Source of the DNA: Myxococcales bacterium
GTDB taxonomy: Bacteria > Myxococcota_A > Polyangia > Polyangiales > Ga0077539
Direction of reading: 5' to 3'
Length of the DNA stretch: 64,000 nucleotides
Assembly: GCA_016792845.1 (NCBI GenBank)
Contig: JAEUKH010000018.1
Location: 138,984 to 202,983, forward strand
The notes beneath the pieces are model-generated. The model was not told the origin of the DNA. It did no database searches and saw nothing but the letters and a program-made list of their open reading frames with translations. Shown one piece after another: positions 6,387 to 62,227 of this stretch. Within the stretch, counting starts at the first letter, position 1. Each line of letters starts with the position of its first letter. A program made the position numbers and the translations under genes.

Positions 6387-7271
6387 GTGAGCTTCTCAAC
6401 GCCCCTCATTTCGGTCGAAGCGTTGTCTACCCTGGCCGCCTCACCGCGGCTCCGGTTGATCGACCTCCGGTGGCATCTCAACGGCCCGAGCGGCGCCGAT
6501 TTGTACGCCCGCGGCCACCTCGACGGGGCCGTCTTTGTCGACCTCGAAGCCGCCCTCACGGCCCCCGTGGGCCCCGGGCGACACCCCATCGCCAGCCGCG
6601 CCCAGTTTGAGCGGGCCATGCGCGCGGCGGGCGTCTCGAACGACACGACGGTGGTGGTCTACGACGACGCCGGCGGCAGCGTCGCGTCTCGGCTCTGGTG
6701 GCTCTTGCGATACTACGGGCACACCGAGGTCGCGGTGCTCGACGGCGGCCTCGCCCGCTACGAGGCCCTCGGCGGCGCGCTCAGCACCCGCGCCACGGCG
6801 CCCGAGCCCGGCAGCTTCGTGGCGAAGCCCGGGGCCATGCCCGTGGTCTCGGCCCTCACCGTCGAGGCTCGGGCCGCCGAGCCCGAGGGGGCGCTCCTCC
6901 TCGACGCCCGCGCGCCCGAGCGGTACCGCGGCGAGGTCGAACCCGTCGACGCCCGGGCGGGGCACATCCCCTCGGCCCGCAACGCCTTCTGGCAGTGGCA
7001 CCTCGACGGCGCGGTGTTTCGCAGCCGAGAGGCCCTCGCGGCCCACTTCGCCGCCCTCGGGGTCACCCCCTCGCGCGAGGTGATCGCCTACTGCGGCAGC
7101 GGCGTCACCGCCTCACAGCTCATCTTGGCCCTCACCTACGCAATGCCCTCCCTCACCGTCTCGCTCTACGAAGGCAGCTGGAGCGACTGGTGCCGCGACC
7201 CCTCGCGCCCCATCGCCACCGGCGAGGCCCCGGGGCAGCTCTGGCCATCAAGCCCATCGCCCCGCTGTTGA
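6387..7271 (+). CDS. Tandem-rhodanese sulfurtransferase (thiosulfate/3-mercaptopyruvate type)
   Basis: Two rhodanese modules. Active-site loop CGSGVTAS near the C-terminus. Confidence 0.75.
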   Translation: MSFSTPLISVEALSTLAASPRLRLIDLRWHLNGPSGADLYARGHLDGAVFVDLEAALTAPVGPGRHPIASRAQFERAMRAAGVSNDTTVVVYDDAGGSVASRLWWLLRYYGHTEVAVLDGGLARYEALGGALSTRATAPEPGSFVAKPGAMPVVSALTVEARAAEPEGALLLDARAPERYRGEVEPVDARAGHIPSARNAFWQWHLDGAVFRSREALAAHFAALGVTPSREVIAYCGSGVTASQLILALTYAMPSLTVSLYEGSWSDWCRDPSRPIATGEAPGQLWPSSPSPRC

Positions 7272-7555
7272 ACGGTGTTCAACACGCCCCTCGCATCGCC
7301 TTGTTGAACAGTGTTCAACACGCCCCCCATCGGCGCCACAACCACACTCGCAGCGCTTCGTTGAGCGGCGCTCAACACGATCACCGCGGAGAGGCGGCAC
7401 GCTGTTGAACAGCGCTCAACAGCGAGGCCCGATGACGCTTCGGCGCCCGCGGAGTGTGCGGCGGTCGCGCGACCGGCGGCCCTCACGGGTCGGGGGTCAC
7501 ACGCAGACGCTGTAGCGATTCTCTGGGGCGAGGAGGCTGTTGAACAGTGTTCAAC
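7267..7555. repeat. Array of five 17-bp palindromes GTTGAAC-N3-GTTCAAC in a convergent intergenic region
   Basis: Copies at about 7267, 7303, 7360 (GTTGAGCGGCGCTCAAC), 7404 and 7539. Spacing is irregular (34-126 bp). Confidence 0.85.
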
Positions 7556-8838: not shown

Positions 8839-10773
8839 TTGATGGTGACCGTCGCCGCCCGCCGCTCGCGCTTGCTCCTCGTTGGTGCCCTGCTCTTGGG
8901 GGCGTGTGAGACGCAGCCCACCCACGAGGTGTTGTCACTCACCGACCTCACGCCCCGGGCCCTTGAGGTCGGCGAGCGGGTGGTGCTCACCGGCGCGGGG
9001 CTGCCGCAAGCGCAAGACATCCACCGCATTCGGCTGCGCTTCAGCGGCACCGTCGCGCGCCCCGGCGCGGCCAGCTGCGGTCGCCCGGTGGTGCTCAACG
9101 TGGTCGACCCGCCCGACGAGGCGCAGCTCACCGACCACCTCACCGGGCAGAGCCGCGCGGCGACCTATGCCGAGAGCGCGCTCCACACGGTGCGCGTCGA
9201 CGGGCCCAATCGGCTTGAATTCGTGCTCACCGCGGCGATGCTCGACACCCTCTCGCGGTGCCCCGAGGCGAGCGAGGCGCAGAGCGACGCCCCCACCCAC
9301 GCGACGCTGAGCCTCAGCGGGGCGCGGGGCGGCGTGAGCCTCCAGATCGAGACCGCCCAGGGCACCGTGCTCTCGGCCGCCAGGGCGCTCCGCGGACCCA
9401 CCGTCGAGCTCATCCCCCATCGGGCCGCGCTGGCCGAGGAGCTCGCCGCGCGCACCACCGCCGAGCGCGCCCTCGACACCTTGGGCCTCCAGCTCGCAGC
9501 GGCGCACCCCACCGAAGGGGGGCTCCAGATCGAGCGCGTCAGACCCGGCTCTGCGGCCGACGAAGCGGGCCTCTCAGACGGCGACGTGATGGTGCGCCTC
9601 GATGGCGTGACCCTCCTCGGAGTCGGCGATTTTCTCCCCGCTCCGTCGCGCGAAGTCTCGGTGCTCACGGTGCGCCGCGGAGACGCCCTCGACGACCGCG
9701 CGATGCGGGTCTCGAGCCTCGCCCCGACGGCACCCGCCGACCTCGTCGCGACGGGCGTCTTGCTCCTCGTGGCGATGGCCTGGCTCCTCGTGGCCCGCGG
9801 CGGCGGCCCGGGCTCGGTGCGCTGGATCGTGCGTCGCCTCGGCAGCCCCGAGCGCGACCCCAGCACCCATCACAGCGCCCTCGACGACGCGCGCCGCGGC
9901 TGGCGTTGGAGCTGGCTCGTCGGCGACCTCCGGCGTCAGCTCTTGGGCCTCGCGGTGTTCGGCAGCACGCTGCTCTGCACGGTGCTCGGGCCCTTGTTCT
10001 TGGGGCGCGACCTCGACCTCGCGGCGGCCCACGGTTTTGTCGCTTTGGGCTCGCTGAGCCTCTCGGCCTTCTTGCTTCGTCAGCGGGGTCTCGCCCTCCA
10101 TCACACGGCCCGCGCACTCATCGACCGGCTCCCGAACGAGCTCCTGGCCCTGCTCCCGGTGGCGGTGGGCGTGATGGCCGCGGGCTCGCTGCACGTGCAA
10201 GACCTCGTCGACGCCCAGGGCGGCGCCCCGTGGCGCTTTACGGGCCTCGGCGCCCCCTGGACGGCCCTCCTCGTCGTCGGCTGGTGGGCCTCTCTGGTGC
10301 GTTCGACGGAGCCCGGCGTGGCCCTCGACCTCCGGGCCTGGGCGGGCACCGTCTCGATGCTCTGGGTGCGCGCGATGCTCGGCGTGGTGGTGTTTCTCGG
10401 CGCTTGGCGGCTCCCCGGCGTCGGGGCGATGACCCAAGACGCCCGCGCCTCGCTCAGCATGCTCGGGGCCCTGTGGCTGTCGCTCAAAGCCTGGGCCCTG
10501 GTGCTCTCGGCGCTCGCCGCCCGACGCGCCTTCGCCCGGGTGAGCGCCCCGCGCTTCAGCCGCTTCGTGCTCCGCGCGTGGCTGCCCATGTCGCTCGTCG
10601 CCGCGGCCCTCAGCGCCGCCCAGGTGCTCAGCACCCCCCGCCTCGGGAGCGTCACCCGCGACGTGCTCACCCGCTCGGCGAGTTGGGCCACCGTGGCCAC
10701 CCTGGCGATGGCCCTCGGGTGGATCACCTGGCGCCGCCTGCGCCCCCGCGCCACCTTCGGCTACGCCCCCTGA
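8839..10773 (+). CDS. PDZ domain-containing polytopic membrane protein
   Basis: N-terminal lipoprotein-like signal and a PDZ-like segment (GLQIERVRPGSAADEAGLSDGDVMVRLDGV), then at least 8 predicted TM helices. Confidence 0.5.
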   Translation: MMVTVAARRSRLLLVGALLLGACETQPTHEVLSLTDLTPRALEVGERVVLTGAGLPQAQDIHRIRLRFSGTVARPGAASCGRPVVLNVVDPPDEAQLTDHLTGQSRAATYAESALHTVRVDGPNRLEFVLTAAMLDTLSRCPEASEAQSDAPTHATLSLSGARGGVSLQIETAQGTVLSAARALRGPTVELIPHRAALAEELAARTTAERALDTLGLQLAAAHPTEGGLQIERVRPGSAADEAGLSDGDVMVRLDGVTLLGVGDFLPAPSREVSVLTVRRGDALDDRAMRVSSLAPTAPADLVATGVLLLVAMAWLLVARGGGPGSVRWIVRRLGSPERDPSTHHSALDDARRGWRWSWLVGDLRRQLLGLAVFGSTLLCTVLGPLFLGRDLDLAAAHGFVALGSLSLSAFLLRQRGLALHHTARALIDRLPNELLALLPVAVGVMAAGSLHVQDLVDAQGGAPWRFTGLGAPWTALLVVGWWASLVRSTEPGVALDLRAWAGTVSMLWVRAMLGVVVFLGAWRLPGVGAMTQDARASLSMLGALWLSLKAWALVLSALAARRAFARVSAPRFSRFVLRAWLPMSLVAAALSAAQVLSTPRLGSVTRDVLTRSASWATVATLAMALGWITWRRLRPRATFGYAP

Positions 10774-11003
10774 GTTGAACACTGTTCAACACGCGCCTGG
10801 CCGCGTCTTCGCGTCACCCTCGTCGCCCAGATGCGCGCCGTTCGAGGCGGCCTCGGCGCCGCAAGTTGAACACTGTTCAACACGCCCGCGCGCCGCGCTG
10901 ACGCCCCGCCGACGGCATCGCCGGACGCCTGCCCAGGCGCCGCACCGCGCCCCGAGGCCCGAACGATGAACGCTGTTCGGCGCCGTGTTGAACAGTGATC
11001 AAC
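10774..11003. repeat. Array of three or four GTTGAAC-N3-GTTCAAC palindromes in a convergent intergenic region
   Basis: Copies at about 10774, 10865 and 10987 (GTTGAACAGTGATCAAC), plus a degenerate copy near 10965 (GATGAACGCTGTTCGG). Confidence 0.85.
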
Positions 11004-11018: not shown

Positions 11019-12101
11019 CTAGCCGAAGCGAGCCAGGACGAGCCCCGCCACGAGGCCGCCGAGGTGCGCCGCGGCCGACGCGCGCTGCGCCGCCGCGAGG
11101 TCGAGCCCCGCCTGGAGCAACACGAGCCCCGTAAGGAGCAGCGCCCCGACCCGAAGCTCCGGGGTCTTTCGCAGGCGCGGCTCGCCGACGAGGGTCGCGA
11201 TCGAGGCCCCGACCAGGCCCATCGCGGCGCCGCTCGCGCCCACCACGAGAGTCACGCCGGGGCGCGAGGCCCAACTCGCCACGCCGGCCAAGACGCCGCT
11301 CATCACCCAAAGCGAGAGCGTGCCCCGGGGGCCGCGGCGCGACTCGACGAAGCGACCGAAGATCAGCGTCACGAGCACGTTCATGCTGAGGTGCAGCGCG
11401 TTGGCGTGGAGGGGCAGATAGCCCACCAGACGCACGAGGTCGCCCAGCCCCTCGGGAGGCACCCGCAAGGCGCCCCAGCGCAGGAGCCGTTCGGGGGTCG
11501 GCCCGCCGAGCAGGCGCTCGATGCCGTAGCCCGCCAGGAGCATGGTCGCGAGGGCGAAGGTCATGGGGCTCCGCGCCGACAAGACCGCGGGCGAGACCGT
11601 GACCCATGGTTGCAGCGAGAGGCTCGCGAGGAGCCGACGCGCCTCGACGCGCTTCTCGACCTGCGCGACGAGGCGATGCCACGCCGGGTCGCTCTGAACG
11701 ATGGGCGCCAGCGGCGAGGCGCGACGCCGTTCGAGCCGGTGACGCATGGCAGGCCCGAGGCCCGGCAAGGTCATCGCGAGGTCGAGCCGTCGCGCGGCCC
11801 GCTTCGCCCGATCGGCCCGTTGCAGCGCCACCGAACGCCAATACGCCGCGGCGCCGAGGGGAAGCTCAGCCCGCAGCTCGGCCACGAGGCTCGCCGTCGC
11901 GTCGACGAGGCCGAGGTGCGCCGCCACCACGAGGAGCTCAGCGGCCGTCGCGCGAGAGAGCGGCCAGCGCGCCCCGCCGAGGCGGTGCGTCAGCAGCGCC
12001 CCGGGGCCCTGACGGCGCACACGCAGGTCGAGCGCCGCGGCCTCTGAAGCGAGGCCGCCGAGGGTGGGATCGAGTTCGGGTGAGGCGAGCGACCCTGACA
12101 T
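11019..12101 (-). CDS. Rhomboid-family intramembrane serine protease
   Basis: GASGAAMGLVGA (GxSG) and the AHLGGLVAGL histidine helix at the C-terminus. N-terminal soluble domain. The start is uncertain; the ORF extends to 12221. Confidence 0.65.
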   Translation of the reverse strand: MSGSLASPELDPTLGGLASEAAALDLRVRRQGPGALLTHRLGGARWPLSRATAAELLVVAAHLGLVDATASLVAELRAELPLGAAAYWRSVALQRADRAKRAARRLDLAMTLPGLGPAMRHRLERRRASPLAPIVQSDPAWHRLVAQVEKRVEARRLLASLSLQPWVTVSPAVLSARSPMTFALATMLLAGYGIERLLGGPTPERLLRWGALRVPPEGLGDLVRLVGYLPLHANALHLSMNVLVTLIFGRFVESRRGPRGTLSLWVMSGVLAGVASWASRPGVTLVVGASGAAMGLVGASIATLVGEPRLRKTPELRVGALLLTGLVLLQAGLDLAAAQRASAAAHLGGLVAGLVLARFG

Positions 12102-12160
12102 CGTGGGCGGCTCTGGGCATAACGTGAACGGGCCGAGAGGCGTGAGCTTTTGGCAGCTTT

Positions 12161-12766
12161 TCAGGCCGCCAGGGCGCCGTCGTCGCGCTGCTTCTTCAGG
12201 GCGACCCTGAGGCGATGGCACCGTGTGTAGACGGTCTTCACGGGGATGGCGCAGACCTCAGCGATCTCGTTCGGTGACGACTCGTCGACGAAGAGCATCT
12301 TGACCATGGTCTGGTCGCGCTCGCTCATCTCGCCGAGGGTCTCTGCGAGGCGCTCACACGAGAGCCGCGCGGCGGTCTTCTCGAAGAGGTCTTCTTCGAC
12401 GTGCAAGATGTTCTCGAGCGCGGCGAGGTTGGCGCCGGCCGGGCGGCGGCTCACGGCCCTGAGGTAATCGTGGCAGCAGTGGCCGACCAGGAGGGTGATC
12501 CAGGTGCCGAGCCTCGCGCCGCGGTTGGGGTCGTAACAGCGCAGCTTGTGCATGTCGTTCGAGAGCAGCGAGGCGTAGTAGTTGGCGTGAATCTCTTCTT
12601 GATCTGCGCTCGAGAGCACCTTGGCGAAGCTGCCCGTCACCCGGTGGATCTGCATCCACACGAGGCGGTCGAAGCGGCGGTGAAACTCCCGCCACGCGCG
12701 GTCTTCCCCGCGGAGCATCCGGGCGAGAAGGTCGGTGTCGCTGAGCGTTTCGAACGTCTGGTGCAT
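12161..12766 (-). CDS. ECF-type RNA polymerase sigma-70 factor
   Basis: Sigma-70 region 2 (DQEEIHANYYASLL...) and a region-4 HTH (IAEVCAIPVKTVYTRCHRLRVALKKQ). Start placed at MHQTFETL. Confidence 0.7.
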   Translation of the reverse strand: MHQTFETLSDTDLLARMLRGEDRAWREFHRRFDRLVWMQIHRVTGSFAKVLSSADQEEIHANYYASLLSNDMHKLRCYDPNRGARLGTWITLLVGHCCHDYLRAVSRRPAGANLAALENILHVEEDLFEKTAARLSCERLAETLGEMSERDQTMVKMLFVDESSPNEIAEVCAIPVKTVYTRCHRLRVALKKQRDDGALAA

Positions 12767-22289: not shown

Positions 22290-23234
22290 ATGAAAGCCCT
22301 CGAGCTCTCTGACCGCGAGCGCAGCCTCTGCCTCTCGGCGATGGCCACGCTCATGCGCCACGACGGCGCCGTACACCCGAAGGAGCGCGAGCTCTTCGAC
22401 GCCGTCTCTCACGCCCTCGGGCGCGCGACGCCCTTCGACGATGTTGACACTGTCAACATTGACACGATCGCGGCCGAGGTGACAGACCCCGAGAAGCGCG
22501 AGCGGCTCGTGCAGCTCTTGATCGTGACGGCGCTATTTGACGGCGACGTCACGGCGGGCGAGCTGGCGTTTTTGCGGGCGTGGTCAGAGGCCCTCTCGGT
22601 CGACGAGCCGCGCATGGGCACGCTCTCACGTTGGGCCCACGGGCTGTCGTCGCTCACGCAGTTTGACCTCGGGTTTCGCTCGGCGATGCTCGACCGGATC
22701 CGGCGAGACACCTGGGCCCGCGACGGCGTCTCGGGGCTGCGTCACCTTTACGGCAGCCTCTTCGGGATGGGGGCCGAAGACCCGGGCCTCGCGGCGCGCT
22801 TTGACGCGCTCGGGGCGCTGCCCGAGGGCACCTTGGGGCGGGTCTACCACGAGCATTTGCGGGCCCGCGGGTTCAGCTTTCCGGGCGAGCGCGGGGTCAC
22901 GATGCCGAAGCAGCTGGTGGCCCACGATCTCTCGCATGTGTTGGGCGGGTATGACACCGACGCGGGGGGCGAGACCGAGGTGATCGCCTTTGTGGCGGGC
23001 TTCATCTCGACCGACCCGTTCTGGTACGTGTTCGCGATTTTGATGCACATGCACCTCGGCACGCGGGTGTTCGGCCTCGACCCCACGGCCCACCTCGCCG
23101 CCGACGCCCACAAGATGGTGGCGGCCCTGCGCCGCGGGATGCGCGTCAATCGCGACCTCTACCACGACTGGGACTACTGGCCCGCCTTCGCCGAGCCCCT
23201 CGAGGCCGTGAGGGCTTCGCTCAACATCGTGTAG
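22290..23234 (+). CDS. Hypothetical protein with a TerB-like N-terminal domain
   Basis: Helical N-terminus resembling the TerB / DjlA-N fold. It carries a GTTGAC-type palindrome at 22441 in frame (DVDTVNID). Confidence 0.35.
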   Translation: MKALELSDRERSLCLSAMATLMRHDGAVHPKERELFDAVSHALGRATPFDDVDTVNIDTIAAEVTDPEKRERLVQLLIVTALFDGDVTAGELAFLRAWSEALSVDEPRMGTLSRWAHGLSSLTQFDLGFRSAMLDRIRRDTWARDGVSGLRHLYGSLFGMGAEDPGLAARFDALGALPEGTLGRVYHEHLRARGFSFPGERGVTMPKQLVAHDLSHVLGGYDTDAGGETEVIAFVAGFISTDPFWYVFAILMHMHLGTRVFGLDPTAHLAADAHKMVAALRRGMRVNRDLYHDWDYWPAFAEPLEAVRASLNIV

Positions 23235-25451: not shown

Positions 25452-26420
25452 TCAAGGGCGCCCCTGAGGCGCCACCCGCCCGCGCAAAACGTCACCGAGC
25501 GCTTCGAGCCCGCTCCACGGCACCGTCACCCGCGCGACGAGCGCCCGCGCGCGCCCCTCACCGACGGGCCCCTCGACCGACGGCGCCTGCGCCCCCGAGG
25601 CCCAGACATCGGCCCCGATGGCGCCGCCGAGGGTGCTCTCGGCGAAGCGCGCCACGGCCCGTGTGAGCCGCGCCGCGGTGTCGTCGGGGAGCGGGCCTTC
25701 GAGCCGCAGCGTCAGCGCTACGCCGCGCGCTTCAACCTGCGCGTCGAGGGTGAACCACTGCACCCGCCACTGCAACGCGTCGCTGCCGGTCTCGGCGGTC
25801 TCGCGGGGCAAACCGCGTACGCGCCAGCGCAACAGCACCTCGGGGTCGGGCGCCCGCTCGTCGTCGTGCAGGGCTGTCGGCAACACCGCGTCGACGCTTC
25901 GCGGGGCGCCCTCTGCCCAAGCCGCGAGGCCGCACTGCCCCTGGATGGCCAAGCCCACCGCGCGCCCCGCGAGAGAGCCCTCGAAGCGCAGGGCCGAGGG
26001 CCCGAGGTCGTCGCGGCGCCGCGGAGGCAAGAGGCGCTCCCACATCAGTTCGGCGATGCGTCGCCCGTCGAGGGCGCCGGCGCCGAGCCAGAGGGTTTGC
26101 CCCGCGGTCTCGGCCCAGAGGGCCCGTTCGAGCAAGCGTACGTCGACCCCGGTGACCCGCGCGCGGGTGAAGAGGGCGTCTTCGGCCGCGTCGTCGAAGG
26201 TCTGCGCGACGATGCGCCCGAGGCGCGGGTGCGCGAAGAGCGCGGCCGGTCGAAGGAAGACCCACTGCGACGCCTCAGGCGGGCTGAGGCTGCTAAGCGA
26301 GCCAGGACACCGCAGCACAGGCCGCTGCCGAGCCCCCAACGCGCGCGTGGCGCCTGTGTGCTGCGTGCACCCAAGCGCCACCACGAAGGCACCCGCGAGG
26401 CTGAGCCTCGCCGCGATCAA
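25452..26420 (-). CDS. Hypothetical lipoprotein (start overlaps the recA stop)
   Basis: Signal peptide with lipobox LGC. ATGA overlap with recA. Confidence 0.45.
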
Positions 26421-27499
26421 GCCTGCGCCTTGGGCCGCTCTTTACGAGCCGGCGCCTCAGCCTTCTCGTCGCTCTTGGCGCCGGCCCCGTTCAAGCTCTT
26501 CTTGGTGATGCCGTGCTTGCTCAGCACCTCAGTCTCGATGCGCGCGAGCACCTCGGGGTGCTCTTCGAGGTAGCGCTTGGCCTGCTCGCGCCCCTGCCCG
26601 ATGCGCTCGCCCTTGTACGAGAACCACGCGCCCGACTTCTCGACGATGGCGTCTTCGGTGGCGAGGTCGAGGAGGTCGCCGGTCTTCGAGATGCCCTGCC
26701 CGTACATGATGTCGAACTCGACCTCTTTGAAGGGCGCCGAGACCTTGTTCTTCACCACCTTCACGCGGGTGCGGTTGCCCACCACCGACTCGCCGTCTTT
26801 CAACGCGCCCACGCGGCGAACGTCGAGACGAATGGTCGAGTAGAACTTCAGCGCGTTGCCGCCCGTGGTGGTCTCGGGGTTGCCGAACATCACGCCGATC
26901 TTCATACGAATCTGGTTGATGAAGATCATGAGCGTCTGCGACCGATGCACCGAGGCCGTGAGCTTGCGCAGGGCCTGGCTCATCAAGCGGGCCTGAAGAC
27001 CCGGGAGCTGATCGCCCATGTCGCCCTCGATCTCGGCCTTCGGCACCAGCGCGGCCACCGAGTCGATCACCACCACGTCGACGGCGCCCGAGCGCACCAG
27101 CATGTCGGCGATCTCAAGGGCCTGCTCGCCGTTGTCGGGCTGCGACACGAGGAGCTCGTCGACCTTCACGCCGAGGCGGCGCGCGTAGTTCACGTCGAGG
27201 GCGTGCTCGGCGTCGATGAAGGCCGCCACGCCGCCCATGCGCTGGCACTCGGCGATGGCGTGAAGGGTCAGCGTCGTCTTGCCCGAGCTCTCAGGCCCGT
27301 ACACCTCGATGATGCGCCCCTTGGGGAAGCCCCCCACCCCGAGCGCGATGTCGAGCGACACCGACCCCGACCCCACCACCAGCATGTCGCTCTTGGCCGC
27401 CTCGGCGGCGGCGTCGAGCTTCATCACGGCGCCCTTGCCGTACTGCTTCTCGATGCCAACCAACGCGAGCTCAAGGGCCTTCTTGCGATTCTCATCCAT
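26417..27499 (-). CDS. recA: Recombinase RecA
   Basis: Walker [10 protein letters not shown] and the full RecA core. Start placed at [10 protein letters not shown]. Confidence 0.95.
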
Positions 27500-27580
27500 C
27501 TGAAAAACTCCGTGTTGGGGATCGGCGTTTGTCGCCGTCACGCTTGCTTCGTCGCCGTCGCCCACCCTCTATGCACCCTA

Positions 27581-34441: not shown

Positions 34442-35809
34442 ATGGAAGTTGAATGCGTTTCTTGTTCAACGCGCGCGCCGCAGGGCACGAAGCGTTGCCC
34501 CAAGTGCTTGAGGACTCGACTCTTGCCAGTGCCCGAAGCCCCCGCTCGGGGGGGCGAAAAGGGGCTCGCTCGACCCCTGCGCCTTGGGGTGCTCTTTGTG
34601 AGCCTCGGGCTCGGCGCGGGCGGGGCCGTCTGGCTCTCAAAATACAGAAAATCAAGCGACAATCGGGGTGTCGTCGCAGCCCCTGTGAGCGCGGCGCAGC
34701 TCGGCCTTGGAGATTCGTTGAGCCCCGAAGCGGCCGCTCTCACGCGGGCGGCCTCGACACCATCGGCGCGGCTCCGGGTGCTGGGCGAGCGGCTTCAGGC
34801 GCGACGGCGCGCGCGGTGGGTGTCTGGGGGTGATGGGGTGCCTCCGCCCCGCAGCCCGGCTCAGGTGTGGGAGGCCTTGGCGCGCCCCGAGACCGCGGTG
34901 ACGGAGCTCGAAGTGGCGCGTCTCGCGGCGGCGCTCTTGCGCGGGTGCGGCGACAGCGCCGAGGTCGCGCTCCGCGAGCGCCCGCGGCGACGTGAACACA
35001 GCCGTAGCGACGTGGCGGCCCTCGGCAGCTGGCTGGTGCGTTCGGGCGACCAGCTCCTCGACCTCGGGAGCATGATGGTGCTCGGCGCCAGCGCGGTGCC
35101 GCACACGGTGTTGAACAGTGTTCAACTCGCGGCGGCGCTCGACGCGGCAGCGGCGATCGAGGTCTCGACGGCGGCCGAGGGTCGGGCCGCGGCTTTAGGC
35201 CGGGCCGAGTCGGCGGTGAACGGTTGGCGCGACGGCTGGCTCCCGCTGGCTGCGCGGGCCACGGTTTGGGTCAACGTGGGGGCGAGCAGCGGGCTCGACC
35301 ACGCCGCCCGCGACCTCTCGGCGGCGATCGCGCTTTCAGACGACGCGGGCCTCCACCTCGCACGGGCGCGGGTGCTCCTGGGGCAGCGTCGCCTCGTCGA
35401 GGTCGCCTTCGAGACGCAGCGCGCGTTGCAGATGGCGCCGGGCTTCACCGAGGCCGCGATGGCGTCGATGCTCTTACATCGGGTCTACGCTCAGCTCGAC
35501 GGCGGCGCGCCTTCGGGGTGTGAGGCGCTCCATCTCGCGCACCAGCCCACGGCCGACCTCGCCTCGGTGCTCTGCGCCGAGGGCCAGTCTGAGGCCTCCC
35601 GGGCGCAGGCCGCGACGCAGCTCGTGGCGCGCTCGACAGACCCGTTGGTGTTGGCCTACGCGGGGCGGGCGCTCGGCCCTTCGGCGGCCCCGACGCTGCG
35701 GCAAAAGACGACCCTCGCGGCCGCGCGGCGAGAGCTCGTGGGCTGGCTCGAAGCGGCCGGTGAGAGCGCGCTGTTGGCGGCCCTGGTGCCCCAAGACGGT
35801 GGCCTGTGA
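34442..35809 (+). CDS. Zinc-ribbon plus TM hypothetical protein
   Basis: N-terminal C-x2-C-x10-C-x2-C, one TM, and a large helical domain. An in-frame palindrome at 35109 encodes LNSVQ. Confidence 0.45.
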   Translation: MEVECVSCSTRAPQGTKRCPKCLRTRLLPVPEAPARGGEKGLARPLRLGVLFVSLGLGAGGAVWLSKYRKSSDNRGVVAAPVSAAQLGLGDSLSPEAAALTRAASTPSARLRVLGERLQARRRARWVSGGDGVPPPRSPAQVWEALARPETAVTELEVARLAAALLRGCGDSAEVALRERPRRREHSRSDVAALGSWLVRSGDQLLDLGSMMVLGASAVPHTVLNSVQLAAALDAAAAIEVSTAAEGRAAALGRAESAVNGWRDGWLPLAARATVWVNVGASSGLDHAARDLSAAIALSDDAGLHLARARVLLGQRRLVEVAFETQRALQMAPGFTEAAMASMLLHRVYAQLDGGAPSGCEALHLAHQPTADLASVLCAEGQSEASRAQAATQLVARSTDPLVLAYAGRALGPSAAPTLRQKTTLAAARRELVGWLEAAGESALLAALVPQDGGL

Positions 35810-36210: not shown

Positions 36211-37380
36211 TCAGGGCTCGCGCTGCACGAACAGCGACCACACCAGCGCGTCTTGGGTGTCTGTGGTGAAGACCGTGGGGCCCTCGCTCGGGCAGAGCCT
36301 GAGCCCGGCGACGTTCTCGTGCATGGGCACCTCGGTCTCGCCCCCAGAGGCCCGATCGTAGCGGGCCAGGCGCGCCCTGAGACCGACCGCGTGACGCACA
36401 AACCCCAAGCGCACGCAGCCGCGCCCGAGCTGCCGCGGGTCGACCACCGCGAGCACCCGCGAGAACGCGCGGTCGCCCGTCTGCACCACCGCGTCGTGCA
36501 CCGGCGGGAGCGTCTGCCCTCGCGACGCCTGCTGCTCGACGATCGAGAACTCCAACGGGAGGCCCGTCGTAAACCACGCGCCCGGCACCACCTCGGGCTC
36601 GACTCGCGGGTGAACCGGCTCGTCGTCGCGCTGTTGAACACTGTTCAACAGGGCGCGGTAAGTGACCGCGGTCGAAGGCACGAGCCGCGCAGCCCCGGGC
36701 CGGAGAGGCAGCGCGAGCCCCCCCACCGAGGGCCCCTCAAGGCTCGCCGCGCGGTCGAGCGCAGCCCCTTCGCCGAGGCCCACAAGCCCCTCGGGCGAGA
36801 AGGTGCCGCGGTTGAGCGCCGCAACACCGCCGACCTCGGCGCTCGGACCGCGGAGCACCGTCACGATCGCCGTGCCGCCGCGCACCGGCGGGGGCAGCAT
36901 CGGCGAGAGGTTGCGGGTCTCGAGCACCATCACGAGCTCGGCCGGCGCGTGGGTGCACCACTGGAGCTGCCCCGTGACGCCCATGGGTTCGCGGGCCACC
37001 ACCAAGGCAGGAGGCATCACGCTCACACGCTCGGCGCCCTCGGCGCGGTGTTGCAGCCCGAGGCGCTCGATGCGGTGATACCCGTGAACCGAGACCACCA
37101 CGGCCGCGCAGGTCTCGGCCCCGAGGCTCAGGGTGTACGACGCGTGACCCCGCGCGCCCGCGTCGGCTTCGAGCACCGGGAGCGTCACCTCGACGGGCTC
37201 GCGCATCCCCAAAGCCCGGGCCACCGCCACCTCGGTGTTGTGGACCCGCCGCGCGAGCGCCTCGGCCACCGGCGGCGCGTTTTCGGGAGGGTGCCGCGCC
37301 CGCGTCGCCGTCGCGTACATCAGCGCCACGATGGCCGAAAAGAACGCGCTGAGCACCCACAACACCGCCCGCAGAGACAT
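36211..37380 (-). CDS. Membrane-anchored hypothetical protein
   Basis: N-terminal TM. An in-frame palindrome at 36633 encodes LLNSVQQ. Confidence 0.4.
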   Translation of the reverse strand: MSLRAVLWVLSAFFSAIVALMYATATRARHPPENAPPVAEALARRVHNTEVAVARALGMREPVEVTLPVLEADAGARGHASYTLSLGAETCAAVVVSVHGYHRIERLGLQHRAEGAERVSVMPPALVVAREPMGVTGQLQWCTHAPAELVMVLETRNLSPMLPPPVRGGTAIVTVLRGPSAEVGGVAALNRGTFSPEGLVGLGEGAALDRAASLEGPSVGGLALPLRPGAARLVPSTAVTYRALLNSVQQRDDEPVHPRVEPEVVPGAWFTTGLPLEFSIVEQQASRGQTLPPVHDAVVQTGDRAFSRVLAVVDPRQLGRGCVRLGFVRHAVGLRARLARYDRASGGETEVPMHENVAGLRLCPSEGPTVFTTDTQDALVWSLFVQREP

Positions 37381-37522: not shown

Positions 37523-38758
37523 ATGCGAGCGCGCGCTACGGCTTTGATGACTCTCTCGACGGCCCTCTGGGTCGCCTCGTCGCCCGCAGCGGCTCAGCTC
37601 ACGGGCGGGCGTATCGGCGGCTCCAACTGGGGCGCCGCGCGGCCCTCGCGCACCGTCCAGGCGAGGCCCTCGGTGATGCCGTCGTTCGGTGCGCCGACGC
37701 CGAGGCCGGCCCCCGCCCCCGCGCCGACGGTGCAGCTGCCGGGGCTCCCGGCGGTGGCTCCGAACCCCGCCGCGATGCCGGGGATCGCCGTCGTCACGCC
37801 GCGGGTCGAGGTGCCAGCGGCGCCGCTCCCTCGCCTCGCGGTGAGCGCGTATGTCGCCCCGCCTCCGCACCCGGGGTATGTGCTCTACGCTCCCGGGGGT
37901 CGCACCCTTGAGCCCGACGAGGCGCAAGCGACGCACCCCCTCTGGCCGATGCACGACACCTACGGCCCGCTGAACCTCCTGGGCGGCGCGGTGGTCTTTG
38001 TGGGTCTCTTCGGCGCGCTCGGGGTCGGCGCCTGGGTGCTCACCCGGGCTCAGGGCGCAGCGCCGTCGCCCTCGCCGCCGTCCATTCCCCACGCTCCTGC
38101 GGGGCTCCCGGTGTCGCTCGGCCGGGTCTCGCTCGCGTTCGACGCCTCGCTCCGCGCGCACCTCCAGGCTGAGCTCGCGCGCTTCGCCGCGCAGGCGTCG
38201 TCGTCGTCACCTGAGGCCCTCGAGCGCACGACGCGGCAGGCCATCGACCTCCTCGGCAGCGCCCTCGGGGCGGCGCGGGCCGCCGCGGTGGCGAGCGCGC
38301 AGAGCCGCGTCGACGAGGCCGAGCGGCGCTTCACCGGGCTCGCCGATTCGCTGCGGCAGCGGTACACCGTCGAGAGCATCACCGAGGCCCGACGGGTGGT
38401 GATGCCGGGCCTCTCGCCCCTCGCCGACGAGGGTCAAGGCTTCGTGGTGGTGTCGCTCCTCGTCGCTGTTGAAACCCCGGATCTTGAAGCCCCCGCAGAG
38501 TTGAACACTGTTCAACTTGGGGCGTGGTTGCGCGCGCTGCGACCGCGGGCCGGGGGGCTCCTCGCGACGGAGCTCATCTGGTCACCGGCCGACCCTGGCG
38601 ATCTCATGTCATCGGCCGAGATGCTGCACCTCTACCCCGAGCTTCGCCCGCTCGAAGGGGCGACGCTCGGGCGCGTGGTGTGCGGGCACTGCCGGGCGGT
38701 GTTCGCCGCCGAGTTGGGGCGCTGTCAGCGTTGCGGCGCGGCGCCCGCCCAAGCCTGA
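37523..38758 (+). CDS. DUF1517-like exported protein with a C-terminal zinc ribbon
   Basis: Signal peptide then GGRIGGSNWG. C-terminal C-x2-C-x12-C-x2-C. An in-frame palindrome at 38500 encodes ELNTVQL. Confidence 0.4.
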   Translation: MRARATALMTLSTALWVASSPAAAQLTGGRIGGSNWGAARPSRTVQARPSVMPSFGAPTPRPAPAPAPTVQLPGLPAVAPNPAAMPGIAVVTPRVEVPAAPLPRLAVSAYVAPPPHPGYVLYAPGGRTLEPDEAQATHPLWPMHDTYGPLNLLGGAVVFVGLFGALGVGAWVLTRAQGAAPSPSPPSIPHAPAGLPVSLGRVSLAFDASLRAHLQAELARFAAQASSSSPEALERTTRQAIDLLGSALGAARAAAVASAQSRVDEAERRFTGLADSLRQRYTVESITEARRVVMPGLSPLADEGQGFVVVSLLVAVETPDLEAPAELNTVQLGAWLRALRPRAGGLLATELIWSPADPGDLMSSAEMLHLYPELRPLEGATLGRVVCGHCRAVFAAELGRCQRCGAAPAQA

Positions 38759-45998: not shown

Positions 45999-47831
45999 AT
46001 GAAGCGTCGGTCAATTGCCGCCACCGTGCGGACAGGATCAGTGTACGCTGTTGCGCTCGCGACAGCTCTCGGGGCCCGTTCGGGTCTCGCCCAACCCATC
46101 ACCCCGACGGCGACGCAGACGAGCCCTGCGACCCCCGCGCAGACGGGCACCGACCCGGGCACGACCTCGGGCGCCACGACGCCCGCGGGCGGCTCGAACA
46201 GCGCCCAGGGCTTCGCGCCTCCGAACCTCGGGCAGACGGCCCCGCAAGACCCCGGCCCGCAGCCGCAGGCGGGCGCTCCGGCGGTTCAGCCTGTGCGTAT
46301 GGAGGCCCCGGTGGCCCGCACGGCGCCGGCGACGTCGGCCCGCCCGTCGACGCCCCACGATTTCATCGACACCCGCATCACCTGGACGTTCGGTGACGAC
46401 GACATCTTGACCTCGACGGGTCAGCGGGTGCCCGTCTCGCCGCTCCCGCGGATCGCCGACCGACAGCAGTACCAGCTCTTCTTCGACGCGCTGAACTCGC
46501 GCTTCGCGGGCCGTGAGAACCTCACGCACCTCGCGATGTACGCGCGGGCTCCGGGCTTCATCGACCGGCTGACCACCGAGGCGGGCTTGATCCTCCGTGT
46601 CGACCTCGGCCAGTTGACCACGGGCTCGGGCAACTTGAACCAGGCCTTCTACGACGCGGGCACGTTCTTGCGTGTGGCCTACGGGCTGAACCCTTCGCGG
46701 GCCTCGGACCAGGTGTCGCTGACCTTCTTCCCCTTCGACACTGACCGCTTTCGGCTCGGGTATCTTTGGGATCTCTCATGGGGCGGCAACGACGTCTTCC
46801 CGCGCCGCGTGGGCCCCGCCCCGGGCCTGAAGCTTCAGCTCGACATCGGCGGGCTGCAGCTCTGGACGGGCTTCAAGACCGCCGGCATCGTGGTGCCCCT
46901 TGAGGTGGTCACGCAGTCGCGCGACATCGAGATCGTGCGCGTCGAAGAGACCCAGTATGCGGCCCTCGCGGGCGGCGCGTACCGCTTCAACGAGAACGTC
47001 AGGTTTGACGTCTCGGGCGGGTACTTTCAGCAGGGTCGCTTCGACTTCCCCGGGGTGCGCGGGCAACAGGTCTACCTCGTCGGCGGCAGCGCGCGGCTGG
47101 TGTTCTCGCAGGGCCTCAGCGCGGGCCAGTCGCTCGACATGCGGCTCTACCGCAACGACCCGACGACGCCCTTCCAGGCCTTCACCCCCGAGACCTACAC
47201 CCCCGGCCGCGTCTTGTGGAACGTGTCTCTCGAAGGCACCGCCATCGGTCAGAACCTGGCCGACATCAACTTCCCCGGGCGTACGGCGATCCAGACGGGC
47301 TTCGCGGGGGCGCTCCAAGCCCGCCTCAAGGCTGGCTACTTCGGCGCGGGCTTCACGGCCCTCTACCGCGACGTGCCCTTCCTCCTCCGCAACGTGCCGA
47401 GCTTCATCCCCTTCCAGACCTTGCCCACCGACGCGACGGTCGACCCTGAGTTCTTCCTCGCCGCGCAGGTCGACTACGCCTTCGTGCGTCAGCATCTCAT
47501 CCCGAGCTTGATCGTGGGCATGCAGCTCCCGGCCTCGTTCTCGAGCTCGGTGCGCGAGGGCTCCCTCGAATCCGAGCGCACGCTCGTGATTCGCCGCGCG
47601 GGCAACTTCTCGATCCTCCCGCCGGGCGAGGGCCGCGTACCGATCATCTCGGCCCGCGCCTCGATGCGCTGGGATCTCTCGACCGTCCTCGCGGGCATCT
47701 TCTGGGTGCAGTACGTGCTCGACCAGAACGCCACGCTCCTCCAGGTCGACTCGTCGGGTACGCGCCAGGTGCGTATCTTCCAAGCGGCCAATCAGCTCGG
47801 CTTCGGCATCACCGCGCAAGCCCGCTTCTGA
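45999..47831 (+). CDS. Outer-membrane beta-barrel protein
   Basis: Signal peptide, alternating amphipathic strands, and a C-terminal ...GFGITAQARF with terminal Phe. Confidence 0.5.
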   Translation: MKRRSIAATVRTGSVYAVALATALGARSGLAQPITPTATQTSPATPAQTGTDPGTTSGATTPAGGSNSAQGFAPPNLGQTAPQDPGPQPQAGAPAVQPVRMEAPVARTAPATSARPSTPHDFIDTRITWTFGDDDILTSTGQRVPVSPLPRIADRQQYQLFFDALNSRFAGRENLTHLAMYARAPGFIDRLTTEAGLILRVDLGQLTTGSGNLNQAFYDAGTFLRVAYGLNPSRASDQVSLTFFPFDTDRFRLGYLWDLSWGGNDVFPRRVGPAPGLKLQLDIGGLQLWTGFKTAGIVVPLEVVTQSRDIEIVRVEETQYAALAGGAYRFNENVRFDVSGGYFQQGRFDFPGVRGQQVYLVGGSARLVFSQGLSAGQSLDMRLYRNDPTTPFQAFTPETYTPGRVLWNVSLEGTAIGQNLADINFPGRTAIQTGFAGALQARLKAGYFGAGFTALYRDVPFLLRNVPSFIPFQTLPTDATVDPEFFLAAQVDYAFVRQHLIPSLIVGMQLPASFSSSVREGSLESERTLVIRRAGNFSILPPGEGRVPIISARASMRWDLSTVLAGIFWVQYVLDQNATLLQVDSSGTRQVRIFQAANQLGFGITAQARF

Positions 47832-48399
47832 GCGGCAGTTCAGCCAAACCCAGCGCCGCGTCTTCGAGCACCTCTGCCGCGTCGCCGACGCCCTCCATCG
47901 AGAGCGCCGCGACGCCGTGGCAGTGCGCCCAGAGCGCCATCGCGCGCCCCCGCACCTGCCCCGTCGAGGCCAGCCCATCAACCGCCGCGAGCGCCACCAC
48001 GAAGCGCTCGAACGCGTCGTGGGCCCGGTTCGGCGCACGCCCCGCGGGCGCGAACATCACCGCGTAGAGACCCCGATGGAGCCGCGCGAAGCCCACGTAC
48101 GCCGCGCACACCGCGACGAGCTGGGCGCGGGCCGCGACGGCCTCGGCGCGGGCGCCATCGAGCCGCTCGACGAGGCGCGCGAAGCCCTCCTCTCGCACCG
48201 CCCCGAGGAGCCCCTCACGGTCAATGAAGTGGTGGTACGCCGCGGCCGGAGCGACCCCCGCCTCGCGGCACACCGCGCGCAGCGACAGCGCCGCCGAGGG
48301 GCCCGATTCGAGCATCGCCAGGGCCGTGCCCATGAGGGTCGCGCGGAGGTCGCCGTGGTGTTGCCCCACCCTCCGCGGGGGGCGCTTTCGCTTCGCCAT
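47809..48399 (-). CDS. TetR/AcrR-family transcriptional regulator
   Basis: N-terminal HTH LRAVCREAGVAPAAAYHHF. 196 aa. Confidence 0.8.
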   Translation of the reverse strand: MAKRKRPPRRVGQHHGDLRATLMGTALAMLESGPSAALSLRAVCREAGVAPAAAYHHFIDREGLLGAVREEGFARLVERLDGARAEAVAARAQLVAVCAAYVGFARLHRGLYAVMFAPAGRAPNRAHDAFERFVVALAAVDGLASTGQVRGRAMALWAHCHGVAALSMEGVGDAAEVLEDAALGLAELPLRSGLAR

Positions 48400-48445: not shown

Positions 48446-48606
48446 GTTGAACAGCGTTCAACAGCGCCGAGGGCATCGAAGGGGCCGACCCGCGCTCAGC
48501 CCGGCCGAGGGTTGTCTGTCATGTTGAACAGCGTTCAACGGTGAACCCTGCGCGTGTTGAACAGTGTTCAACTTCGCCCCTGTGTGCGTGTTGAGCGGTG
48601 TTCAAC
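48446..48606. repeat. Array of four GTTGAAC-N3-GTTCAAC palindromes directly upstream of the TetR gene
   Basis: Copies at about 48446, 48523, 48556 and 48590 (GTTGAGCGGTGTTCAAC). Flanking GTGAACC motifs at about 48438 and 48541. Confidence 0.85.
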
Positions 48607-48898
48607 TGGGGCCTGGCCCGCGCTCCTGGCCCTGCGGGGGCGGCGGCATCCGGTCGGGCCTGCAGATCATGCGCTGGTCGCGGAAGGCCGCGCAGGTGCC
48701 CGAGATCGTGTGGGGGCCGAAGTTGACCGTGCAGGCGTCGCCGGTGTTGTGCCCCTGGCAGGCCGTAAACGCCTCGGCAGGGGGCTCAGGCGGTCGCCCG
48801 CCGGGGTTGCCCGGTTGGCCCTGCGGTTGGGCCGCGGCGAGGCCCGAGAGCGACAAGACGAGACCCAGTGAGCAGAGCGCGCGGCGCAGCGATTTCAT
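48602..48898 (-). CDS. Small secreted Cys-containing protein
   Basis: Signal peptide. 98 aa with 4 Cys. Pro/Gly-rich. Confidence 0.4.
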   Translation of the reverse strand: MKSLRRALCSLGLVLSLSGLAAAQPQGQPGNPGGRPPEPPAEAFTACQGHNTGDACTVNFGPHTISGTCAAFRDQRMICRPDRMPPPPQGQERGPGPS

Positions 48899-49423: not shown

Positions 49424-50731
49424 GTGAGTCTTCCGCTGGTTGTTGCGATCCAGAAGGCGCTCGGCGAGGCGCCCGGCCACCCTGCCCTCGTCGACGATGC
49501 GCTGCGGGCGGTGTTCAGCTTCCAGCTCCACGCGCCGCAGCTGACCGACGACCCGCGCGCGCGGGCCGCGCCGCACGCGGTGCTCCACGAGATGCTCACC
49601 CACCTCGCCGCGGGCCCGTGGCACGCGCGCTTTGTCGCCCTTGAGTTGAACAGTGTTCAACACGAGGCCCTGGTCATCGCGGGCTTCGCCGCCGCGTCGC
49701 TGCCCGAGGTCGAGTGGCTCATCAAGCAGAACTGGCGGGTCACCGAGGGGCTCCTCGCGGCCCGCGACGACGCCCCCGAAGCGCTGCTGGCGCTGGCCGA
49801 GCGGCTGCGCGGCAAGCCCGCCGAGAACCCCGCACTCTTGACGGCGCTGGGTCGCCTCGCGGTGATCGCCGACGGCCTCGAAGACGCGCTCACGTTGGCG
49901 AATTGTAGCCTCGCCGCGACGGCCGAGCGCGCCTTCACGGCCCTCGGCCCGACCCGCACCGCGCGGGTGGTCGAGCGGGTGCTCGCGCGCTTCGACCACA
50001 CGCCCGAGTTTCGCAGCCAGAGCCTCATCCCGATGCTCGAACGGGTCGGGCCCTGGCTCAACGCCCGCGCCCTCGACGCCGTGCTGACCCGGGCCGAGCT
50101 CCTCTCGAACACCTACCTCGCATGGGAAGATTGGGGCCAACGCCTCGGCCAGAACGCCGACACGCGCTTCGTCCTCGGGGCCGTCGCGGCCCGCATCGCC
50201 CAGCACGACGACCCGGGGCTCCGCGACGGGTGGCGCCGGGCCGCGCGCATGTTGCTCGACCGCGCGACGCACCGCGGGTTTGTGCCCTCGCCCGACGACG
50301 ACGTGTTCATCGACCCCGCGGGCGCGGCGCGCGGCAACGACGACGTGTGGATGGCCACCCGGAGGCTCCTCAACGCCATCGGCCCGACCCGCGCCGAGGC
50401 CGTGCTGACGGCAGCCTTCGCGGGCTACCGCGCCCCCTGCGAGGCCCTCCGCTTCGCCGTGAGCGGCATGTCGCCGGGCTACCTCTCTCGGGTCGCCGAG
50501 GCCATGGTGGCCGTGCGCGACGACCCTGCCTTCTCAGACCTCCTGGCCATCAGCGACCTCAAGCCCTTCGGCCCCGGGTTCGTCGACGCGCTCATCGAGG
50601 CCCTGCGCGACCTCCGTCCGCGCCGCGCCTTTGTGAAGCACCTTGAGCGCAACCTCAGCGTCGGCGACTACAACCGCCTCTCGATCTGGCTTGAGACGCG
50701 CCCGCCGCCCAAACGCCCCCGCGCGCCGTGA
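49424..50731 (+). CDS. Hypothetical helical-repeat protein
   Basis: 435-aa ORF with ordinary composition. An in-frame palindrome at 49644 encodes ELNSVQH. Confidence 0.4.
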   Translation: MSLPLVVAIQKALGEAPGHPALVDDALRAVFSFQLHAPQLTDDPRARAAPHAVLHEMLTHLAAGPWHARFVALELNSVQHEALVIAGFAAASLPEVEWLIKQNWRVTEGLLAARDDAPEALLALAERLRGKPAENPALLTALGRLAVIADGLEDALTLANCSLAATAERAFTALGPTRTARVVERVLARFDHTPEFRSQSLIPMLERVGPWLNARALDAVLTRAELLSNTYLAWEDWGQRLGQNADTRFVLGAVAARIAQHDDPGLRDGWRRAARMLLDRATHRGFVPSPDDDVFIDPAGAARGNDDVWMATRRLLNAIGPTRAEAVLTAAFAGYRAPCEALRFAVSGMSPGYLSRVAEAMVAVRDDPAFSDLLAISDLKPFGPGFVDALIEALRDLRPRRAFVKHLERNLSVGDYNRLSIWLETRPPPKRPRAP

Positions 50732-50794
50732 GCGCCCTGTTGAACAGTGTTCAACAGTGGGTGAAATTCGGGGGCGCAGCGGGTGCGGCGCGGG

Positions 50795-52600
<1,806 letters not shown>

Positions 52601-52648
52601 GCGATGTACTCCTCGGCGCGCGGTTGCCCCCAACGACGGGTCAAACGC

Positions 52649-56949: not shown

Positions 56950-57818
56950 GCGCCGCGCCGCCCTCGTCGCGCTCGGGCCCCCTCGCCCTCGGCCTCGCGG
57001 CCCTCGCGCTGCTCACCGACGCGCACGGGTACTGCCGCACCACCACGTCGCCGGCGCAGCCCGACCCCACCGTGTGCCCCGCCCGCGGCGTGCCCATCGC
57101 CTGGCCCACCCGCTGCGGCGCCATGCGGCTCTCGCCCATCGAGCGCCCCCCGAACCTCGATTGGAGCGTCGTCCAGAGCGCGACCCGCGACGCCGCCGCG
57201 GCGTGGCGCGGTATCGACTGCGGCGGCGGCCGACCCTCAGGCTTCGACCTCGAGATCCTCGGCGACGTCGCCGCCGCCGCCGGCTACAATGTTGACGGTG
57301 TCAACATCAACAGCATCAACTTTCTGTCTCGTTGGGCTGACGACGCGTTTCACCCGCCCGACGCGGCGGCGGTGACCATCGTCACCTTCGGCGCGATGTC
57401 GGCCAGCATCCTCGACACCGACACCGACCTGAACCTCGCCGACTTTCGCTTCGTGGTGGGCGCCGACCGCACCGGCGCTGACTTGCAGACCATCCTCGGG
57501 CACGAGATGGGGCACGCGTTGGGGCTCGCCCACAGCCCCGATCGCCTCTCGGTGATGTGGTACGCCGTCGGTCGCGGCGAGCAGCGGCGCGCCCCAACGA
57601 GCGACGACGTCGCGGGCCTCTGCGCGGTGTATCCGCCGCGGCCGCGCGAGGCGTGCGACCCCGAGATTCGTCGCGAGACCTTCTACGGCGGCGGGTTGCC
57701 GCTGGCCTGCACGAGCGGGCCCCGCGGGGGCGGGTCGGGGGGCGCTGCGGTGTGCCTCGGCGCGGCGCTCTGGCTCTCGGCGCGGCGACGGCGCGCGGCG
57801 CTCAGCGGGCGGCGATGA
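56946..57818 (+). CDS. Matrixin-family zinc metalloprotease (M10) with a MYXO-CTERM-like tail
   Basis: HEMGHALGLAHS motif. C-terminal GGGSGGAAVCLGAALWLSARRRR. Carries a GTTGAC-type palindrome at 57289 (NVDGVNI). Confidence 0.75.
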   Translation: MSAAPPSSRSGPLALGLAALALLTDAHGYCRTTTSPAQPDPTVCPARGVPIAWPTRCGAMRLSPIERPPNLDWSVVQSATRDAAAAWRGIDCGGGRPSGFDLEILGDVAAAAGYNVDGVNINSINFLSRWADDAFHPPDAAAVTIVTFGAMSASILDTDTDLNLADFRFVVGADRTGADLQTILGHEMGHALGLAHSPDRLSVMWYAVGRGEQRRAPTSDDVAGLCAVYPPRPREACDPEIRRETFYGGGLPLACTSGPRGGGSGGAAVCLGAALWLSARRRRAALSGRR

Positions 57819-62155: not shown

Positions 62156-62227
62156 TAGGCGCGATAGGGTTTGAACCTACGACCCCCACCGTGTCAAGGT
62201 GGTGCTCTACCACTGAGCTACGCGCCT
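62156..62227 (-). tRNA. tRNA-Val (anticodon GAC)
   Basis: Manual cloverleaf fold: acceptor AGGCGCG/CGCGCCT, D-arm GCTC/GAGC, anticodon stem CCACC/GGTGG with loop TTGACAC, T-arm GTAGG-TTCAAAC-CCTAT. No encoded CCA. Confidence 0.8.

Follow-up and report, generated by a model that had tools for sequence, protein, structure and literature searches.

Why should a short AT-rich palindrome recur several times between the stop codons of two convergent genes? The question is raised by positions 10,774 to 11,003 of a 64,000-nt stretch of a Myxococcales bacterium genome (GCA_016792845.1, contig JAEUKH010000018.1, positions 138,984 to 202,983 of the forward strand; the whole stretch is called the window below), where a preliminary description had reported a palindrome array, with three good copies and one degenerate copy, between the genes of a PDZ membrane protein and a rhomboid-family protease. 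This arrangement was confirmed: two copies are perfect, one has a single mismatch and one has four mismatches, and the array sits between the stop codons of the two convergent genes. The same palindrome is distributed over the window as three arrays (this one being array 2) and five single copies, and it is also present upstream of TetR-family regulator genes in other genomes. The palindromes are probably duplex operator-type sites for dimers of the TetR-family product of the gene at 47809-48399, multiplied beyond the usual one or two sites, and this multiplication suggests a wider chromosomal role for the repressor.

A symmetric palindrome in excess

The core unit is an 8-1-8 perfect palindrome, GTTGAACA-N-TGTTCAAC, which is AT-rich in DNA of 70-74% G+C. 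Pooling of both strands of the 18 copies gave a full motif in the form of a symmetric 19-bp palindrome, T-GTTGAACA-N-TGTTCAAC-A, with the outer T (left) or A (right) found on 24 of the 36 flanks, a weaker cgt/acg extension beyond it, and C or G as the centre base in every copy. The 19-mer is without significant polarity, and its symmetry is the one expected for a dimeric helix-turn-helix protein; together, the size and symmetry of the motif fit those of TetR-family operators (~15-20 bp, occupied by one helix-turn-helix dimer). All 14 occurrences of the half-site 8-mer GTTGAACA in the window fall within full sites, and therefore the functional unit is the whole palindrome.

Sixteen copies with three or fewer mismatches were observed in the window against 0.03 expected, and a chance origin of this excess is excluded. 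The observed numbers of matches with zero, one, two, three, four and five mismatches were 10, 4, 2, 0, 3 and 5, respectively, whereas a first-order Markov model gave 0, 0, 0, 0.01, 0.42 and 3.96 for the same 64 kb. Since all three of the four-mismatch matches (0.42 expected) fall inside arrays, the degenerate copy of array 2 is best read as a genuine decayed copy. A-to-G and T-to-C changes predominate among the variant bases of the copies, and strains differ by single bases inside copies, which agrees with the earlier proposal that the copies diverge by point mutation.

At the same time, the implied nature of the copies as repeat “elements” with conserved flanks or target-site duplications was not borne out. 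Alignment of the 18 copies with 25-nt flanks revealed similarity of only 1-3 bases outside the core, that is, no more than a 19-23-nt core, and neither target-site duplications nor flanking direct repeats were found in this alignment. Nor do the flanks contain a longer shared unit matching a known repeat family, an outcome that the preliminary description had named as a refutation; the core instead matches a site upstream of a TetR-family regulator gene.

The spacings within the arrays are irregular (36, 57, 44 and 135 bp centre to centre in array 1; 91, 100 and 22 in array 2; 77, 33 and 34 in array 3), and no helical phasing was found in the centre-to-centre distances between copies. Between the outermost array copies and the stop codons of the neighbouring genes there are 0-21 nt. 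The spacers of adjacent units are faintly alike, both in array 1 (ACGCCCC...CATCG after the 7267 and 7303 copies) and in array 3 (CCCTG..GCGT before the 48556 and 48590 copies), which fits local duplication followed by GC-biased point mutation.

The palindrome upstream of TetR-family genes

The regulator gene at 47809-48399 is the sole TetR-family gene found in the window. Array 3, the densest array, lies directly upstream of it, with the nearest copy beginning 47 bp upstream of the TetR gene ATG (48399) and the last copy overlapping the stop codon of a small secreted-protein gene (48602-48898, minus strand). A scan of genome contigs for the exact 17-mer gave at least the matches listed, mostly cyanobacterial REP-type copies; among the matches listed was a Myxococcota metagenome-assembled genome (MAG; L060) in which a perfect 17-mer separates a metallo-beta-lactamase-fold gene from a divergent TetR gene, the product of which is 43% identical to the window TetR protein (tblastn E = 1e-23). 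A homology search with the window TetR protein, followed by retrieval of the encoding contigs, provided three further loci, and the palindrome was found upstream of the TetR homologue in each of them: perfect in L119, with one mismatch in L120, and as two copies with two mismatches each in L121. Additionally, a perfect copy and a second, weaker copy precede a TetR homologue of 28% identity in a Bauldia locus (L097). The upstream palindrome, with 0-2 mismatches, is thereby present in five other genomes, in four of which (L060, L119, L120 and L121) it occupies the spacer between the TetR and metallo-beta-lactamase-fold genes, and these homologous loci have promoter copies only.

Sites with 0-2 mismatches accompany the homologues of 41-47% identity that share the YHHF helix, and the recognition-helix signature A-x-Y-H-H-F is common to the window TetR protein and the homologues with an identical site. 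More distant members of the subfamily, with TetR_N and TetR_C_33 domains, have related but altered TGAACA-N-(T/C)GTTCA-type palindromes upstream of their genes (Table 1), and Y-R-H-F/Y in place of Y-H-H-F. Across genomes, conservation of the site accompanies that of the regulator, and the site is altered as the protein diverges; it also lies in the promoter region of the regulator at array 3 and at the five other loci. Both features are expected of a TetR-family operator. Because the palindrome recurs upstream of homologous TetR genes, the window TetR protein is the best candidate for binding it, by phylogenetic footprinting rather than by a binding assay, and such binding would account for the position of the densest array directly upstream of its gene. 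The closest solved structure, 3on2, is that of an uncharacterised structural-genomics TetR protein, and no operator is transferable from it.

The comparison with known TetR-family operators (TetR/tetO, QacR/IR1) shows a likeness in that a 17-19-bp perfect palindrome is located in the promoter of the regulator, is usually shared with a divergent gene, and is conserved across homologous loci. The difference is one of number and place: a normal repressor has one or two operators, whereas at least 16 copies per 64 kb are present here, mostly between convergent genes or inside genes, with no evident promoter.

Two further observations concern the upstream regions. A second conserved block, GGCA(C/T)GTTGCG(A/G)(A/G)G, which is separate from the palindrome, stands directly before the TetR start codon in three homologous loci, L060, L119 and L120. 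In a Sandaracinaceae MAG (L085, 7568-7584), one perfect copy, as the 19-mer TGTTGAACAGTGTTCAACA, lies just upstream of a flavin-monooxygenase-like gene.

Table 1 Palindrome copies, associated genes and related sites. Positions are those of the window unless a contig is named
Feature	Position	Strand	Palindrome	Context
Array 1	7267-7555		five copies, two perfect	between convergent rhodanese and nucleotidyl-transferase genes
Array 1 copy	7267		1 mismatch	overlaps rhodanese stop codon
Array 1 copy	7303		perfect	
Array 1 copy	7360		4 mismatches	
Array 1 copy	7404		2 mismatches	
Array 1 copy	7539		perfect	ends 21 nt short of the stop codon of the mannose-1-P guanylyltransferase-like gene
PDZ / NADHdh-like membrane protein gene	8839-10773	+		left neighbour of array 2
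Array 2 copy 1	10774-10790		GTTGAACACTGTTCAAC, perfect	begins 1 nt past the TGA stop of the PDZ membrane-protein gene
Array 2 copy 2	10865-10881		GTTGAACACTGTTCAAC, perfect	
Array 2 degenerate copy	10965-10981		GATGAACGCTGTTCGGC, 4 mismatches	same in three strain contigs
Array 2 copy 4	10987-11003		GTTGAACAGTGATCAAC, 1 mismatch	ends 15 nt short of the rhomboid stop codon
Rhomboid-family protease gene	11019-12221	-		right neighbour of array 2; gene caller's start: 360 aa, 11019-12101
Intragenic copy	35110-35126		perfect	gene 34442-35809 (+); encodes VLNSVQL
Intragenic copy	36633-36649		perfect	gene 36211-37380 (-); encodes LLNSVQQ
Intragenic copy	38500-38516		perfect	DUF1517 gene 37523-38758 (+); encodes ELNTVQL, within the Pfam DUF1517 match
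TetR-family regulator gene	47809-48399	-		TetR_N and TetR_C_33/WHG domains; candidate binding protein
Array 3	48446-48606		four copies	
Array 3 copy	48446		1 mismatch	
Array 3 copy	48523		1 mismatch	
Array 3 copy	48556		perfect	
Array 3 copy	48590		2 mismatches	
Intragenic copy	49645-49661		perfect	gene 49424-50731 (+), 435-aa protein; encodes ELNSVQH
Single copy	50739-50755		perfect	between convergent 435-aa protein gene (49424-50731, +) and dnaK (50795-52633)
Distant subfamily member L135	upstream		TCTGAACATCGTTCAGA	
Distant subfamily member L136	upstream		GTGAACAGCGTACAC and GTGAACGGTGTCAAC	
Second conserved block	L119 2640-2658			
Second conserved block	L120 1116-1134			
Second conserved block	L060 5322-5338			
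REP-type loci with the same 17-mer	L001, L007, L013, L015-L021, L086, L088, L103 and others			among the matches listed

Copies within genes, strains and relatives

Four of the single copies are inside genes, and all four are perfect and read in the same frame, as L-N-S/T-V-Q; one of the alternative frames contains a TGA stop, and the other gives VEQCS. The third-codon-position G+C periodicity is unbroken across the 36633 and 49645 copies and weaker around those at 35110 and 38500. In the DUF1517 gene, the ELNTVQL encoded by the 38500 copy aligns gap-free to GHDLASL in an orthologue from Polyangiales that is 45% identical, and ELNSVQ of the 49645 copy is located in a variable segment with no gaps across eight homologues. 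An insertion of 17 bp would have shifted the frame, and so these two copies arose in place with the length unchanged; judged by the alignments, they were created by substitution. For such an origin of a motif with 16 specified bases, the DNA sequence must have been under a directional force. The fifth single copy (50739) begins 8 nt past the stop of the 49424-50731 gene and ends 39 nt short of the dnaK stop.

Every copy keeps its position, without insertions or deletions, in contigs of 99.7-100% identity to the window that were obtained from many sequencing runs, and no gain or loss of a copy was found among them. The differences are confined to single bases: the window has A at position 10998 where three other strain contigs have T, which makes the palindrome perfect, and one base of the 48523 copy and the last base of the 50739 copy differ between contigs. 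The multiplication is old enough for fixation in the sampled population and for the presence of decayed copies, so the evolutionary age favoured in the preliminary description over a recent burst is upheld.

The best named homologues of the window proteins belong to Polyangiales. In three relatives (L116, L118 and L134; ~45-52% protein identity, 55 kb in total), no copy was detected even at four mismatches, while partial conservation of the gene order with the window was seen in L116 and L134. The absence of the motif from these three relatives makes the multiplication lineage-specific. A scan of metagenome contigs for two degenerate copies 10-40 nt apart returned three contigs, all with unrelated tandem repeats, and no other organism with such arrays. 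Tandem repeats with a related palindrome were seen in two contigs: three tandem 23-bp units, GTTGAGCAATGCTCAACACGTAT, in L122 (554-616; 48% G+C), and 42-bp repeats with GCGTTGAGCGTCGCTCAACACG, probably coding, in L124 (1-200).

Some observations are independent of the palindrome. Five Logan contigs (L125-L129) from five sequencing runs all end exactly at window position 51388, inside dnaK, and this shared end suggests an assembly-breaking repeat or a paralogue. A second AT-rich palindrome family is present as ATGTTGACACTGTCAACAT (22441-22459, inside a TerB-domain open reading frame), ATGTTGACGGTGTCAACAT (57289-57307, between genes ending at 56949 on the plus strand and 57802 on the minus strand) and GTCAACATTGAATGTTGAC (1136-1154, between the 3' ends of the ParA-like and methyltransferase genes); these may be sites of another regulator.

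Alternative explanations and the possible role of the sites

Short extragenic palindromes clustered downstream of genes, some of them bound by host proteins, are typical of the REP/BIME/REPIN elements associated with RAYT transposases (PMC2817692). The window copies could accordingly be regarded as REP/REPIN- or MITE-like selfish repeats that fold into hairpins as single-stranded DNA or RNA, owe their spread to a RAYT or IS200/IS605-type enzyme whose gene is elsewhere in the genome, and collect in permissive convergent spacers, with the identity to the TetR site being a coincidence or a capture. We consider this unlikely. The clustering downstream of genes in convergent spacers is indeed that of REPs and BIMEs, but one quarter of the copies (4 of 16) are inside genes, two of them without any length change relative to orthologues, so that the family is not strictly extragenic. 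ACG on one flank in 11 of the 18 copies could be taken for a one-sided head; it is, however, consistent with the weak symmetric extension (~1.7 two-sided occurrences expected, none seen), and there is no GTAG or GGAG head, the flanks being c-g/c-T on both sides. In contrast to the imperfect palindrome of REPs, that of the window copies is perfect and symmetric, no alternation of orientation is detectable in a symmetric motif, and the stem is AT-rich and weak for a 70% G+C genome, although the intergenic RNA folds well (z = -5.4). No common flank, target-site duplication or shared internal sequence was found, and no copy was gained or lost among strains from many samples. A RAYT-associated REP is recognised by a RAYT gene flanked by repeats and by >100 copies per genome; no RAYT or other transposase gene was found in the window, and Pfam scans of its genes detected no Y1 transposase.

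A further resemblance to REPs lies in the core itself. High-copy REP-type elements of the form GTAGGG-GTTGAACANTGTTCAAC-CCCTAC, with the same 17-mer as a stem, are present in cyanobacteria (Geminocystis sp. CENA526, an uncultured Cyanobacterium MAG and Microcystaceae MAGs) and in Thermotogales MAGs. The core thus recurs in the cyanobacterial REP family, but the GTAGGG head of that family is absent from the window copies. The shared core of these elements and the window sites may be a coincidence or have a common cause.

Somewhat less probable still is the action of the palindromes as RNA-level 3'-end hairpins, i.e., as terminators for the convergent genes or as stabilisers of their mRNA against exonucleases. 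The distance of the outer array copies from the stop codons on both sides is suitable for this, and a stem of 7 bp with a loop of 3 nt is possible in each copy. The hairpin amounts to only -6.8 kcal/mol, however, being AT-rich in a GC-rich genome and lacking a U-tract; a terminator scan gave nothing at the arrays, and the sequence shows strict conservation instead of compensatory variation. It is also present in TetR-gene promoters of other phyla and inside genes, neither of which suits a terminator, and the good fold of the whole spacer arises because the repeated palindromes pair with one another. No Rfam family was found at the arrays; the sole Rfam match in the window is a tRNA gene at 62156-62227 on the minus strand.

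A chromosome-level system unrelated to TetR (a parS-like centromere cluster, matS/Noc-type sites or an uptake signal spread by biased recombination) is improbable: the density of ~1 site/4 kb and the perfect in-place intragenic copies resemble parS clusters and uptake signal sequences, and the window opens at its left edge with a ParA/MinD-like gene, but the sequence is not, by inspection, the parS consensus (TGTTNCACGTGAAACA), no ParB gene or domain was found in the window, half-sites never occur alone, the distribution is clumped, and the position upstream of TetR genes is left unexplained. Local clustering, away from promoters, of sites with high affinity for a single DNA-binding protein is known from datA-type titration loci and parS clusters; the window arrays share this clustering with them and differ in protein family and motif. 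The gene at the left edge (57-548) is represented by the C-terminal part of a ParA/MinD-type ATPase (AAA_31 and CbiA domains), with no ParB gene after it, and a full-length ParA/MipZ-like gene occupies the corresponding position in the relative L134.

Several other identities were tried and rejected. The spacing is GAAC-N3-GTTC and not the N4 of a LexA box, and no copy lies upstream of recA (26417-27565). A CRISPR array has a regular period and repeats of ≥23 nt, whereas the spacings here are irregular and no cas domains were found. Recombinase core sites were rejected on anatomy, an intrinsic terminator for the lack of a GC-rich stem and a U-tract at the arrays, and a MITE for the lack of terminal inverted repeats around a shared internal sequence and of target-site duplications.

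The reading as amplified TetR operators has to face several objections of its own. It is not evident what use a classical repressor would make of sites inside genes or in convergent spacers, and within the window the sites in a promoter position are those at the TetR gene alone. The sites occur in clumps separated by 24 kb, 13 kb and 10 kb, and the view is limited to 64 kb of the genome. Strain divergence inside the sites, 2-3 changes per ~270 bp, is not below the ~0.25% background, and so there is no detectable purifying selection at this shallow strain depth. Finally, another protein may recognise the same sequence. We infer binding of the sites by the TetR protein and selection that would keep the copies outside promoters.

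If the palindromes are TetR operators, their multiplication can be outlined as follows. Elsewhere, the subfamily has one or two sites in the promoter of the regulator, which in four of five cases is shared with the divergent metallo-beta-lactamase-fold gene. In the Polyangiales-like lineage of the window, multiplication has taken three forms: a four-copy array in the promoter of the regulator, further arrays plus a lone copy in convergent spacers, where the outermost copies are near stop codons, and perfect single copies that substitution created inside genes. The arrays probably grow through local duplication and decay through GC-biased point mutation. Because the copies are close to the 3' ends of convergent genes, the function preferred for those outside promoters is that of a protein roadblock or insulator, which would act against read-through at the ends of convergent transcription units; alternatively, the copies could titrate the autoregulated repressor or take part in SlmA-like nucleoid organisation.

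SlmA is a TetR-family nucleoid-occlusion factor of gamma-proteobacteria that acts through SBS sites. It resembles the system proposed here in being a TetR-fold protein whose palindromic sites on the chromosome are numerous and lie outside promoters, and it provides a precedent for whole-chromosome action. The window TetR protein is not an SlmA orthologue, since it scores 19 bits against a cut-off of 120 with NCBIfam NF007015, and the sequence and length of the site are different. A stronger version of the operator reading may be put forward only tentatively, and we regard it as possible rather than probable: the TetR repressor would have been recruited from a one-operator switch to a site-specific chromosome-associated protein, with perfect 19-bp sites actively created and kept at convergent 3' ends and in coding sequence (as L-N-S/T-V-Q), either as roadblocks or insulators or as SlmA-like organising sites. 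If true, TetR-fold proteins acting nucleoid-wide would have originated a second time, independently, through this recruitment.

The exact motif was not found in the literature, and keyword searches of the literature gave nothing relevant. The site itself is of a known kind, probably a TetR operator, while its multiplication into gene-end arrays and in-frame intragenic copies was not found described in the literature searched. If the TetR protein occupies the arrays, they would represent a natural case of a one-operator repressor that has gained dozens of high-affinity sites or more. This would bear on how GC-rich bacteria with few canonical intrinsic terminators separate convergent transcription units, and on how coding sequence can acquire binding sites while the length of the protein stays the same. 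For annotation, it advises caution, as palindromes that are short, clustered and extragenic need not be REPs or MITEs.
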